Part shown: positions 5,073 to 55,226 of the stretch, piece by piece | Numbering within the stretch: position 1 is the first letter of the stretch | Layout of the letters: each line of letters begins with the position of its first letter | NCBI GenBank assembly: GCA_964016885.1 | Contig: OZ024740.1 | Span: 192,820,001-192,884,000, forward strand | Direction of reading: 5' to 3' | DNA from: Eledone cirrhosa | Lineage: Eukaryota | DNA: 64,000 nucleotides | Notes under the pieces: generated by a model | The model's database searches: none | The model's input: the letters and a program-made list of their open reading frames with translations, nothing else | Told to the model about the DNA's origin: nothing | Translations under genes and position numbers: made by a program

Positions 5073-5340
5073 ATTATAATTTCCCAATCAATTAGTTTAG
5101 TAACAGGATAACTGTTTAGTTGAATAACTGATTGTTGAAGCTCTTTCATCACATATTCTGTGACTTCCTCAGTGACAACTTTTGTTGTTACTCTGTGACT
5201 CTACTTTGTTCTCTCTTCCACCATGTTACAAGCTGGTATATGTCACAGAAGGAGATCAGCAAATGTTGATGAAAGAGCTTTGACAATCAACAACTAACCA
5301 AAAATCTGGTTATTAAACTAACCAACTGGGAAATCATAAT
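5073..5340. repeat. Fold-back element with a minimal hammerhead-like motif in each arm
   Basis: Imperfect ~105 bp inverted arms; HHR-like motifs at 5133-5177 (-) and 5241-5285 (+). Confidence 0.8.
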
Positions 5341-5853
5341 ACTTAATTAAACCCAACATGTGCTTGTGTTTTTCCTTGACAGCATTACTCTCCCGAAGTA
5401 TTAGAACTTTGACATATTTGAGGGAGATTATAAGAAATGTTATGTGTTCATTCAAGTTTGCCTTTGAAAAGCATATGGCTAAGAATTTATTTTCATTTTA
5501 TTTGATTTGCATTGAGATTTAAGAAAATGTCATATATTTACCTTGAAGTAGTAATTTAAAAAAAGGAATTGGGTGTGTAAGTTATACATTGAAGCTGTTG
5601 CAATTTATCCTATTTGTATTGAAGTGGTGATTAAAGGGAGATCTGCTGATGAATTTTGGTCAATCCCACCACTTGGCAAAATTTAGATTTGTTTCGAGGT
5701 AATACATTTTTTGGAGGGAATTTTTCATTTGTTAATTTGACCAATACTTAACTGTAAAGGCATGAGAGAAGTTAAATATATATATATATATGTTATTGTG
5801 CTCTTTCTTTCTAGTTTCTTTCTGTCTTTGTTTATTTCCTTTCTCTGCTTTAG

Positions 5854-5897
5854 CCACACGGATAGACACTTTCTTTGGAGACAATCACAATAAACAG
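5854..5897 (+). CDS. Candidate coding exon of an unidentified gene (xTRIDTFFGDNHNKQ)
   Basis: Long polypyrimidine tract ending TTTCTCTGCTTTAG, open frame, donor CAG|GTAGGT. Confidence 0.4.
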
Positions 5898-6170
5898 GTA
5901 GGTCCGGATTTTGTTAAATCACTTTTCAAAACTGTTTGCATAGTTGTTCTTATTTATACATGTAAGTTTGTGTGTATATTATTTATTCTTAATTATATCT
6001 TGCATTCATATGTGTATATTATATTAGATTTATTTGTAAGCAAATAATGACATTAAGGATTATGTCTTTTATGCCACTTTTTATGTGACGTTTTGGTTAT
6101 TTTTTTAATGGCTTGGGTGTTTTCTTGATTATTATTGTTTTTGTTTTGGGTTTTCTGTTGCATTGCACAG

Positions 6171-6191
6171 ATTAGACTTCATGATGCATAG
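6171..6191 (+). CDS. Candidate terminal coding exon (IRLHDA*)
   Basis: T-rich acceptor ending TTGCACAG; phase 0 is compatible with the 5854-5897 exon. Confidence 0.3.
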   Translation: MRLHDA

Positions 6192-6860
6192 CATCACATC
6201 ATCAAGATGGATAGTTTGAAGATTTAAAGTTAAAAGAAAATGGGAGGAGGTGGAGCACAGTTTATTACATAATGGGTCATAGTCACTGCAGATAGTAATA
6301 GCTTTGGCTTTAATATATAACAGTTACATAATATGACATCTGCAACATGGTAATACATGTTTTCCCTATTTGGTGTTTGTTGTGATTCGGTTATGTATGT
6401 TGAGTAGAAAGATCTGTGGTCCGCATTTGATTTGTCGAATTTGATGGTTGTGTACAGTTTGTTTTGACATGAATAACACCGTGTAACAGAAAAAAAAATG
6501 TTTCTCTGTTCCTGGCTTGTAATCACTTTTTTTGTGTTGCTTAGGTCCCAAATAAATTTAAAAAAGTGCTATTAAACAGTTAAAAGTTGGGGTTTGTAAA
6601 AATTCTAAGCTATTCACTAGAATTATTTGTATGCTGGATTTTACGTTGTATGTAAGTTTAATTTGCTTATGTTAAATGATTTTTTTTATATATGTTTCAG
6701 GTTAAATTAAAATTATAAAATAAAGAGTAATAACTAAAGAAAATTATAAAAGTTCAATAAAGTATAAAATTGTTAAAAAGTGGATTAAAGAGATTTATTG
6801 ATACTGGATTTTCGCACCCTGAATAAAGGGTAAGTTGTGTTTTAAGCATTTGTCTCCAGG

Positions 6861-7970
6861 ATGAAGAAGTGGAATACGGTCAAGGAGGAAGTGCAGGTGA
6901 TATATCAGAGAAGTCAACACGAACCTTTATCAGGCTTTTACACTCTTAGGGATGGCCTCTGCTTCTGCCATGACGTGCCAGGACTGTTTGACGTTATCGG
7001 GGTGCCGTTTGTGCCAGAGGAGTGGTGGCTATTTATAGACAGCTACACCACAAGTTTGAAGGCTGTCCTCCTCCACAATGGAAGCAAGTTCCCGACACTG
7101 TCCCTAGCTCATTTAGTCTGCCTGAAGGAAGATTACTACACTGTGAAAGTCCTCTTAGAAGCTCTGCAATACAACCAGTACAATTGGGAAATCATTGGAG
7201 ACTTCAAGATGGTGGCTTTTCTGCTTGGACTCCAAGGAGGCTTTATCAAATTCCAATGCTTGCTCTGCCTTTGGGACAGCAGAGCCACCTCTGACCACTA
7301 CAAAAGAAACAACTGGGAGCAGCGAACAGAATTTGTAGTTGGGACCCAGAACGACATGTGGGAGCCACTGGTTGGTCCCAGGATTGTGCTCATGCTGCCA
7401 CTGCACATTAAGTTGGGGTTGATGAAGCAGTGTCTGAAGGCTCTCAACCAAGAATCAGCCGCTTTTAAGTACCTTCTTCAGTTCTTCCCCAAGTTATCTG
7501 AGGCCAAAATCAAAGGTGGAATTTTTGTTGGCCCTCAGATAAAGAAGGTGTTTGAGTCTACTGAGTTCTCCAATAAGCTCAATAGGATTGAGAGAACAGC
7601 ATGGAACTATTTCAAGGCTTCCTGGAAGCCCTTAACAGCATGGAACTGTTAAGGGCTTCCTAGGCAACTACAGAGCTGAAAACTACCAGCAACTGGTGCA
7701 GGATCTGATAAAAGCTTTTGGCACCTTGGGATGCTGGATGTCACTTAAACTCCATATACTGGACGCTCATCTGGAAAAGTTCAAGCACAATATGGGCGCC
7801 TACTCAGAAGAACAAGGCGAACGATTCCACCAAGATGTGAAAGAGATAGAGCGTAGGTACCAGGGCCACTACAATAAAAAAAATGATGAGGGACTATATC
7901 TGGGGGCTAGTGCGGGAATGCGACCTGGACTACAACCGCAAATCCAGGAAATCCAGTCATTTCTGATGTG
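6861..7970 (+). pseudogene. Chapaev-type transposase, N-terminally deleted and frameshifted
   Basis: LFIDS..SLKAVLLHNG, WEIIGDFKMVAFLLGLQGG, CLLCLWDSR, LPLHIKLGLMKQ, MSLKLHILDAH, SEEQGERFHQD; family assignment from recalled motifs. Confidence 0.82.
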
Positions 7971-8179
7971 TAGAGGTTGCTTTATAAGTGTTATTGGTTT
8001 TTACTTGTTTGCTTTTGATAAGCTTGTGTAATAAAATACATATATATTGTGTTAATTTAATTATAAGTACTGATAAATTTTTTTTAAATGTGTTTTTTCT
8101 TGAAAATTATGAAAATTTCGAAATTTTAAACTCCTGACCACAAACCCAAACTTCTGATTAAATAATAGTCTTTTTTTAT

Positions 8180-8369
8180 AATAATTGTTTCTACTTTTGG
8201 CACAAGGCCAACAATTACCCAGTGTGTTACTGGTACTTTATTTTATCGACCCCATAAGGATGAAAGGCAAAGTTAACTTCGGCGGGATTTAAACTCTGAA
8301 TGGAGAGGGATATAACTCTTTGCGTCAAAGCATGGCGTTCGACCCTCTACCGATACTGCCAATCCACCA
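8180..8369 (-). mobile_element. SINE family A nested in the Chapaev element
   Basis: Near-full copy in reverse orientation with ATAATAAT at both ends. Confidence 0.88.
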
Positions 8370-53269: not shown

Positions 53270-53471
53270 GGCGCCACAGTAAAAAAGCATCCAGTAATCA
53301 CTCTAAATTACATTGGTGTTAGGAATCGGCATCCAGCTGTAGAAATGAAGCCAAAATCAGTTCTGTATGAACAAGACATGGTCGCCTGACCTGGCATTGC
53401 CCACAACAGGACAACCCGTCTAGCATGGTAGAATGGACATAAAATGTTGATGATGTTGATGATGATGATGC
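53270..53471 (+). mobile_element. RTE/SINE-B 3' tail fragment
   Basis: TTGGTGTTAGGAATCGGCATCCAGCTGTAGAA and (GAT)n; inserted after (TA)n. Confidence 0.8.
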
Positions 53472-53977
53472 ACACACTCACAGAAACACACATATATATA
53501 TAGGGGTTTGTAATGGGTTTATGTATGTATATATTTGTCTTTGTGTATGTGGATGCGCATGTCTATATACACACACACACATATCCATGTGTAAAATCAA
53601 GGAAAATGATGATAATGAAGATGTACACTCATATACAAATATATGAATATTTGTGATAAATGTATATTTTTATATCAAATGATGTAACCTCTTATTACTT
53701 AAAATATCATGAATAATATCTTAAAACATCATTTTCATTTTAAACATCTCAGCAACATCTATCAAAGTATGAGGTATGACATATTTTGTCCTCTTTGGCA
53801 CTGGACTAAATAAAAAATTTCTGAAAAGTGTTTAAATGCTACAATATTGCCATTATGATATATTTGCGTGAGGTGAATCGGAGATCTACTATTTTGACAG
53901 GTTTTATTTATTTATTTTATTTTTTATCATTAATTCAATGTGTAAGGTGCAGACAAGAATATATTATTATTTGTCAG

Positions 53978-54041
53978 GAAATCCAATTTAGTTCCCTTAG
54001 AGAGAGCTTGGCAGTCAATCAGTCCAAAACTACTAGACTAG
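53978..54041 (+). CDS. Candidate terminal coding exon (KSNLVPLERAWQSISPKLLD*)
   Basis: Acceptor ATTATTTGTCAG; phase compatible with the 51435-51545 exon. Confidence 0.27.
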
Positions 54042-54482
54042 AATATCTAAGATATAGTCACATTTCAGAAAAGTACTTACCAAAATATATATCTTTATAA
54101 TTAATCAAGAAGAATGTAAGAGCAATGAACACTAATTCATAAGCACAAACTTAAGGCAGAAAGAATGTCTACTTCCTTTAACAATCAAACAGAATTTATC
54201 TATATCTTTACATTTTCTGAAGTCTAACAAGCGTTTTAACAATTAGGCGACATAAAAGTTCTTATTGTATATATAATATAAATAGTAAAAATATGTACAT
54301 ATATAATTATAAATATACACAGGCACAGACACACACATGCACATACACATCCTCATCATCATCATCCTCATTTTACGTCCACTTTTGCCTGCTTGCAAGG
54401 GTGGGATGGGTTCTATTCAGCATCTCTCCACTTCTCATGGTCCTTCGTGATATATGAGCCCAACACATATATATAAATATAT

Positions 54483-54693
54483 ATATGTCAGTTGCTGAAA
54501 TGTTCATAGGCTAAAAGTACAAAGGGTGGCCAAGGTACTCTCATGGAATGACCAAATGGAATATATTTTTGAACATAGTCTCTGGAAAGAAACAATGCAG
54601 TCATTAATAAGAGTTGAAATTTATATATGCAAGATTTCACAGCTGTAGTAACAATTTTTCATAGTCAGACTATGAAATTTTCAGCCGAACCTC
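54483..54693. mobile_element. mariner-like MITE remnant
   Basis: GTTGCTGAAATGTTCATAGGCT and AGACTATGAAATTTTCAGCCGAAC form imperfect TIRs. Confidence 0.55.
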
Positions 54694-54749
54694 TTATCTG
54701 ATTGAGAGTATGTGTGTGTATATACACACACACATATATATATATATGT

Positions 54750-54943
54750 ATAATTGTTTCTATTTTTTACACAAGCCCAGCAATTATCCCAGTGTATTAC
54801 TGGTGCTTTATTTTATTGACCCTGTAAGAATGAAAGGCAAATTTAAACTTGGTGGGATTTGAACTCAGGCCATAAAGGGGCGTATCTCTATGCTTGCAAA
54901 GCATGGCATCCCACCCTCTACTGATACTGCCAATCCACCACCC
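54750..54943 (-). mobile_element. SINE family A
   Basis: Full copy in reverse orientation. Confidence 0.9.
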
Positions 54944-54954
54944 TATATATATAT

Positions 54955-55226
54955 ATATAATAATACAAGGATGAATGGTTACTCCTTCATTACGTTTATT
55001 GGTTGGTGAGGTGTGTTTCACTATTGATAAGCTCAAGGTTCGATCTGGCCCGACTCTGGAATCAAAAGTTCATCGGACCATTGTAACAGAGGTCCAAAGA
55101 GCTTTTGATTCCAGAGTTGGGCCAGATCGATACAGATCAAACCTTGAGCTGATTAGTAGCAAAACGTACGTCGCCAACCAAAAAACATAAAGAAGGAGTA
55201 AACCATTCATCCTTGTATTATTATAT
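54955..55226. repeat. Fold-back element, palindromic over almost its whole length
   Basis: TAATACAAGGATGAATGGTT..GGACC / GGTCC..AACCATTCATCCTTGTATTA with an ~11 nt centre. Confidence 0.92.

Follow-up and report, generated by a model that had tools for sequence, protein, structure and literature searches.

Short fold-back elements in the Eledone cirrhosa genome as probable head-to-head stubs of Penelope-like element ends

The 64,000-nucleotide stretch of the Eledone cirrhosa genome analysed here (contig OZ024740.1; the whole stretch is called the window, and all positions are counted within it) contains three short fold-back elements, named E1 (at 5.1 kb), E2 (33.1 kb) and E3 (55.0 kb). An initial annotation of the window had proposed that they form a class of miniature palindromic elements with a hammerhead ribozyme in each arm, non-autonomous and mobilised by Penelope-like elements (PLEs). 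The three fold-backs do exist where it placed them, at 5072-5341, 33130-33244 and 54955-55226, with arm identities of 74% (over the outer 90 nt), 70% and 79% respectively. They are also mutually dissimilar, as it had said; blastn finds only words of 10 nucleotides or fewer in common. Its limits were drawn too tightly: E1 really spans approximately 4763-5401, the left arm of E2 extends out to 33073 and the right arm of E3 resumes at 55353-55463. The “ATAAT-rich ends” it described are AT-rich runs internal to the repeat units and not ends of the elements.

Monomers of each family were built from alignments of genomic copies, and a descriptor of the type-I hammerhead was run on the arms and on the monomers. 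Every arm in the window is homologous to a family monomer carrying a hammerhead motif, and each motif points away from the centre, consistent with the outward-facing layout first described. As insertions, all three elements are asymmetric, with unequal arms. The left arm of E1 lies on the minus strand in two collinear pieces, a tail portion at 4763-4871 (79% to the E1 monomer) and a hammerhead-bearing piece at 5070-5227 (84% by pairwise alignment) in which the core CUGAGGA is found at 5172-5166, stems II and III are retained and stem I is broken. Between these matches an AT-rich run of the arm received a later insertion (4872-5069), which by eye resembles an abundant repeat of the window that is like a short interspersed nuclear element (SINE). 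The inverted right arm (5242-5401, plus strand, 81%) is more 5′-truncated, and its core and stem II have decayed. In E2 the long arm with the tail occupies 33073-33190 on the minus strand (84% to monomer positions 1-119), having its core, CUGAUGA, at 33183-33177 and a weak stem II; the short arm, at 33189-33247 on the plus strand (88% to positions 6-64), stops at the first internal TA run, and here the core is at 33191-33197 while the GAAA and the cut triplet are mutated. The short arm of E3 (54955-55079, minus strand, 83% to positions 23-157) has a 10-nt deletion in loop II and has lost the cut triplet. Its long arm (55087-55232, plus strand, 86% to positions 19-163) shows a decayed core at 55094-55100, a long stem II, a change of GAAA to AAAA at 55161-55164 and a cut site after 55172; it is interrupted at its AT-rich run by a later insertion of an abundant SINE-like repeat (55233-55352, matching other copies in the window and filling a gap between collinear E3 matches) and ends in a one-sided tail at 55353-55463 on the plus strand (86% to positions 148-258).

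The same internal AT-rich run at which short arms stop has repeatedly received the SINE-like repeat (L031, L034, L043, L047, L048 and L052 among the retrieved loci, and E1 in the window), which suggests that this run serves as a shared target site. At 42508-42775 there is a fourth fold-back (268 bp, 75% arm identity); it has no CUGANGA core and was absent from the initial list.

Each fold-back belongs to a separate high-copy family of its own genome. First-look candidates numbered 2500 for E1, 1797 for E2 and 4071 for E3; for every search 40 were scored and 30 retrieved, so that the samples are the 30 best-scoring matches per query and not a random draw. When the queries were anchored on the tail and outer arm, leaving out the centre, 13/30 E2 copies were single-armed and 17/30 had an inverted partner; the corresponding figures for E3 were 15/29 and 14/29, one near-duplicate copy having been dropped. 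For E1 an inverted partner was seen at 13/30 loci, and the family includes an asymmetric palindrome of approximately 1.4 kb (L153). The junctions between arms are mostly unique in these centre-free samples (14 distinct among 17 for E2, 14 among 14 for E3). A class of palindromic units, as first proposed, does not describe families in which about half of the sampled copies are single-armed. The tail is mostly present on one arm only; long arms continue to the tail end, and short arms stop in the first internal AT run, at positions 56-73 in most E2 copies and 152-163 in E3.

At the opposite, 5′ end of the copies, starts cluster at the beginning of stem I, with 25/29 E3 copies reaching position 20 or less and 24 of these position 15 or less; L138 is the only one visibly extending upstream of the cluster. 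E1 starts likewise pile up at one site, 6 or 7 of the 30 extending further. Either arm of a pair may reach further 5′: in E3 it is the long arm in 7 copies and the short arm in 7, in E2 the long arm in 4 and the short arm in 9, with 4 ties. Divergence between the two arms of a copy equals that between copies for E1 (0.165 against 0.169) and E2 (0.141 against 0.144), and later homogenisation or inversion thus looks rare in these families. Terminal inverted repeats fixed at both ends were not found throughout the samples, which contain single-armed copies, ragged short-arm ends and one-sided tails, and of tandem head-to-tail monomers only occasional partial cases (L099, L101, L259) were seen in the loci read, no genome-wide array search having been made. 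Target site duplications (TSDs) are unreadable because the flanks are mostly TA repeats, within which a TA duplication is indistinguishable; the longest words common to both flanks were AT-only in 24/34 E2 and 15/19 E3 palindromes with full tails.

Type-I hammerhead motifs occur in all three families. That of the E1 monomer is minimal, with stem I GUCA/UGAC, CUGAGGA, one extra base, a 6-bp stem II, GAAA and a two-pair stem III. In the E2 monomer CUGAUGA is accompanied by a weak stem II (U.U and 3 bp), a stem III of 4 bp and GUA as the cut site; E2c, a young sister subfamily of E2, shows this fold too, its stem I being a perfect 6 bp and its loop II a different one, and passes the descriptor in 29/30 copies. 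Two E2-family fragments elsewhere in the window (59440-59540, which has an E2c-like tail, and 16963-16995) lack the core. The E3 core reads CCGACGA in the subfamilies of the window and CUGAUGA in an older subfamily, is located around 55 nt upstream of a CUGAUCA heptamer, and belongs to a fold that comprises a long stem II, GAAACGCGCGUC and a distal stem I of 7 bp. Hence the initial description of minimal motifs with a very short stem III fits E1 but neither E3 nor E2, in which stem III has 4 bp and the cut site is further out than in a minimal parse. What we take to be its motif in E3, a CUGAUCA-like heptamer beside GAAA (55149-55155), is the 3′ strand of stem II; CUGAUCA was rejected as the core since no stem II or stem I would be left and the C3-G8 pair would be broken. 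Another short palindrome, of about 90 bp, carries a CUGAAGA heptamer in its arm (L019:3192-3283).

The E1 and E3 monomers pass the descriptor, and the E2 majority monomer fails because its core lies at the very start and stem II has decayed at CpG. Among individual arms 13/35 of E1 (at least one of them spurious), 8/101 of E2 and 13/61 of E3 pass, and both arms do so in 0/5, 0/37 and 1/14 two-armed copies respectively. Among 3000 dinucleotide shuffles of the arms of each family, 0, 1 and 0 passed (1/9000). In the window itself none of the six arms passes and a scan of both strands gave 0 matches, contrary to the intact motif expected in both arms of each element. None of 30 copies of the older E3 subfamily, whose proximal stems have 2 bp, passes either. 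For E3, 91.6% of cells in a 43-row alignment are paired and one pair is clearly compensatory (columns 13-121, in 7/43 rows); this covariation support is weak, being essentially one subfamily event judged by a shuffle test that ignores relatedness. With one compensatory pair and a failing older subfamily, the E3 hammerhead is assigned by motif, which is no proof of activity. An Rfam scan of 10 loci placed no hammerhead family in the top 150 of 179 matches, the rest being microRNA-like hairpin noise. In an intact single arm of E2c the hammerhead fold was neither the structure of minimum free energy nor obtained under constraint, giving no support for cleavage as a monomer; the seven other arms picked for single-arm folding had failed the descriptor. 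Read-through RNA is predicted to fold arm on arm, as the initial annotation anticipated, with minimum free energies of -98 (E1), -37 (E2) and -175 (E3) kcal/mol. However, the competition it envisaged between hairpin and cleavage carries little weight because the motifs of the window have decayed, and from their sequence they are predicted to be inactive.

Some E1 copies run upstream into an endonuclease-like remnant. When this remnant was used in a protein search, E1 was found downstream in sense at 25/30 loci (26 matches less L197, which is tail-only and non-collinear), at a distance of 259-421 nt in 23 of them. Furthermore, L246 contains a 791-amino-acid frame running from reverse transcriptase (RT) to endonuclease, with an E1-like pseudo-long terminal repeat (pLTR) after its stop; Pfam gave no RT or GIY-YIG match to this frame, which was assigned from visible motifs and from tblastn similarity to the Pfam-confirmed RT of a PLE in the window. 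Judged from these sequences, E1 is the 3′ pLTR of a Penelope-like family bearing an RT/GIY-YIG open reading frame (ORF), and is therefore not the non-autonomous unit first supposed. For E3, a non-coding leader of at least 1.1 kb, present in a small minority of copies, joins the same endonuclease-like C-terminal remnant in L368, L424 and L425, and this putatively links E3 to another PLE through the older subfamily. The direct link of E1 to GIY-YIG ORFs and the putative one of E3 through the older subfamily bear out a derivation from PLEs rather than from ordinary miniature transposable elements with inverted repeats (MITEs).

In E2c the shared sequence ends around 800 nt upstream in a microsatellite-like stretch. 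In L265 a second hammerhead, some 780 nt upstream of E2c, was considered and rejected as part of it, since it belongs to a separate young neighbour family at a TA run; that family has a sense E2-type match downstream at about 780 nt in 1/30 loci (L308, which is L265 itself). The neighbour family (L308-L337, e.g. L309:1500-1850) is 97-99% identical, has its own hammerhead motif and shares at least 1.5 kb of upstream sequence with no frame of 110 amino acids or more except simple-repeat frames; it could be a long 3′ untranslated region or a non-autonomous PLE. The ends of several PLE families lie directly upstream of E2c at TA runs (L406, L407, L418, L422 and L423, at about 1000-1500), which suggests that PLEs pile up in the same microsatellites.

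Family membership, asymmetry, variable junctions and the linkage to GIY-YIG PLE ORFs (direct for E1, putative and through an older subfamily for E3) are what the sequences show, and we consider it probable that each element is a head-to-head pair of short copies of the hammerhead-bearing end of a PLE, its tail usually one-sided, likely assembled at insertion by the element's enzymes. The three elements are likely to be decayed stub pairs from three unrelated PLE families, joined afresh at each insertion and not copied as palindromes. The template would be an uncleaved RNA starting just 5′ of the hammerhead, probably at the transcription start of the pLTR; that stubs retain the core upstream of the cut site points to an uncut template, as in PMC11167929. 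Reverse transcription of such an RNA would begin at internal AT-rich sites and place the cDNA in a nicked (TA)n target, yielding a stub from the tail to the 5′ end of the RNA. For about one event in two, a further cDNA might start at a nearer AT-rich site from the other target end, and the two cDNAs could then join where short stretches close to their ends are complementary. Since insertion the copies have decayed.

Several observations weigh against this assembly of stubs at each insertion. The ORF link of E3 consists of three old, broken loci judged by eye and by tblastx, without a Pfam scan, and one of them (L425) has no E3 hammerhead in the retrieved stretch, so that the motif is present in 2 of the 3. 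No ORF was found upstream of E2 or E2c in 60 E2c loci and 6 longer stretches, by a search that is blind across microsatellites; a parent behind the E2c microsatellite would be missed because simple repeats are passed over in the DNA search. Among 34 E3 palindromes a single one, L052, bears a tail on each arm. About 17/30 copies retrieved with the window centre as query have the same E2 junction (long arm 1, short arm 6); it falls on a 5-bp micro-hairpin and is seen in 0/17 copies of the tail-only sample. The arms of E3 are closer within a copy (0.070) than between copies (0.103), and rare variants are common to partner arms in excess of expectation: 22/198 in E3 (expected 2.6), 12/208 in E2 (4.4) and 10/73 in E1 (0.7). 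This pattern fits one template RNA but is also compatible with snap-back or some gene conversion.

It is possible, though we think it rather unlikely, that E2, perhaps together with the younger E3 subfamilies, consists of self-propagating, non-autonomous dependants of PLEs, a solo pLTR with an internal promoter serving as source RNA; the palindromes would still be made at each insertion, and this is compatible with the assembly of stub pairs described above. Non-autonomous PLEs are reported in Chlamydomonas (PMC8557442). No common upstream sequence was apparent by eye in 60 tail-anchored E2 loci, E2c is a non-coding unit of approximately 0.9 kb with a recurrent 5′ start, and first-look candidates number 71 for the E3 leader, compared with 2085 for the stub. 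However, subfamilies A and B of E3 include upstream-extended members (L138, L285, L301), E1 has the same 5′ pile-up despite its ORF-bearing parent, and a parent of E2 lying behind the E2c microsatellite would have escaped the search.

Alternatively, a single cDNA could snap back onto itself to give the inverted arm, the reversed centre of some copies arising from later inversion between the arms. Self-priming has been proposed in PMC3846280, the junctions lie at short self-complementary stretches, and both arms are of one subfamily in nearly all of 34 E3 copies (L045 being partly discordant); this concordance, with the rare variants common to both arms, keeps snap-back with later inversion alive. 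Yet in 7/14 E3 and 9/17 E2 copies the short arm has 5′ sequence that is absent from the tail-bearing long arm, the short arm of L138 has around 110 nt of leader that its long arm lacks, and the arms of E1 and E2 are not homogenised. We therefore regard snap-back as doubtful. Since either arm may reach further 5′, and since E1 and E2 show no greater likeness between partner arms than between copies in general, two separately primed cDNAs from one RNA or one subfamily are favoured over it. A bolder extension, which we offer tentatively and hold to be unlikely as a whole, is that PLE palindromes in general would be two separately primed cDNAs, one for each end of the cut target, the dominant product being a strong-stop-like stub that extends from the tail to the pLTR transcription start, and that E2 would represent such stubs turned into a self-propagating SINE-like family whose unusual hammerhead (4-bp stem III, U.U at 10.1-11.1) could cut as a monomer.

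The boldest proposal of the initial annotation, palindromic master elements copied whole in which a ribozyme and its antisense copy act as a folding switch, would account for the recurrent E2 junction of the centre-biased sample and for the long hairpins predicted. It is very improbable; single-armed copies and varying junctions largely refute it for the samples examined, and both arms almost never pass the descriptor together. That the elements are ordinary MITEs of a DDE transposon with a TA target duplication, their hammerheads being due to chance, is hardly credible despite the palindromic shape and TA-rich flanks, as it is refuted by the ORF linkage and single-armed copies and stands against one-sided tails, ragged ends and the rarity of shuffle matches.

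The window also contains a head-to-head PLE with RT and GIY-YIG domains at 8556-13740 (2050-nt arms, 97% identical; Pfam RVT_1 1e-10, GIY-YIG 9e-5). Its long left arm ends in a pLTR of its own, and its right arm stops near 13730 inside the endonuclease region, short of the pLTR. The initial annotation took E1-E3 for miniatures of this element. Its terminus gives no blastn match to E1, E2 or E3, and a search with its endonuclease found that the family has its own terminus in 28/30 loci, which shows that they are not. The hammerhead-like motif of this PLE (8765-8800, minus strand; L216-L245) has the core CAGUUGA, not CUGANGA, in 23/26 aligned copies, while its stem II, GAAA and stem I are otherwise present, and may be a fixed variant or a relic. 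At the centre of the element (11585-11635) a triplicated 9-mer is confined to one side, which points to slippage at the junction. Two further broken frames on the plus strand we take, from their motifs, to be a transposase-like frame (6846-8031) and an RTE-like reverse transcriptase (45880-47791).

E1-E3 are thus ordinary, decayed products of PLE insertion and add three new members to an insertion pattern already known. Annotation tools may class such stub pairs with the MITEs. They are valuable as a natural data set: the insertions are tiny and number thousands, and their junctions can be read, which allows snap-back and two-ended priming to be separated by counting; PMC8557442 states the origin of PLE inverted repeats to be unresolved, and junction statistics bear on how PLEs produce them. 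E2c and E3 also add two candidate hammerhead variants. In a literature search, with most subscription papers outside it, no title listed dealt specifically with miniature PLE palindromes or with the ratio of arm orientations.

The standard PLE insertion consists of a truncated copy in inverted orientation and a tail on one side (PMC3846280; PMC8557442). The insertions of endonuclease-bearing (EN+) PLEs described there, which have an inverted pLTR truncated at its 5′ end, resemble E1-E3 in being head-to-head, with a shorter inverted copy, a tail at one end, microsatellite targets and complementary stretches at the junction. Unlike them, the present insertions are only 170-440 nt long and have no ORF, their tails extend around 80-100 nt past the short-arm end compared with 30-40 bp, and no non-AT TSD was found. 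In Schistosoma mansoni, dual minimal hammerhead ribozymes (min-HHRs) on opposite strands, spaced by 100-700 bp, were ascribed to truncated PLEs (PMC4209133). The metazoan min-HHRs of that source correspond to E1 in the extra base before stem II, the G10.1-C11.1 pair and the very short stem III with a self-complementary loop, whereas E2 departs from them in its 4-bp stem III and U.U at 10.1-11.1, and E3 in its loop II of about 40 nt, its distal stem I and, in the subfamilies of the window, CCGACGA instead of CUGANGA.

In vitro, Poseidon of Anolis carolinensis (PMC11167929) starts reverse transcription at internal AT-rich sites on an uncut RNA template. Its AT-rich targets, the cutting and extension of both strands and the two internal start sites that define the tail also fit the stubs, but its tail is the start of the ORF, while the tails here have no evident ORF. 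Tandem non-LTR retrozymes are known non-autonomous relatives of PLEs (PMC7229834; bioRxiv 10.64898/2026.07.22.740005); like E1-E3 they are small non-coding units with type-I hammerheads, proposed to derive from PLE pLTRs. Retrozymes, however, are arranged head-to-tail and processed from cut site to cut site, whereas E1-E3 are dispersed, start upstream of the core and occur singly or as inverted pairs.

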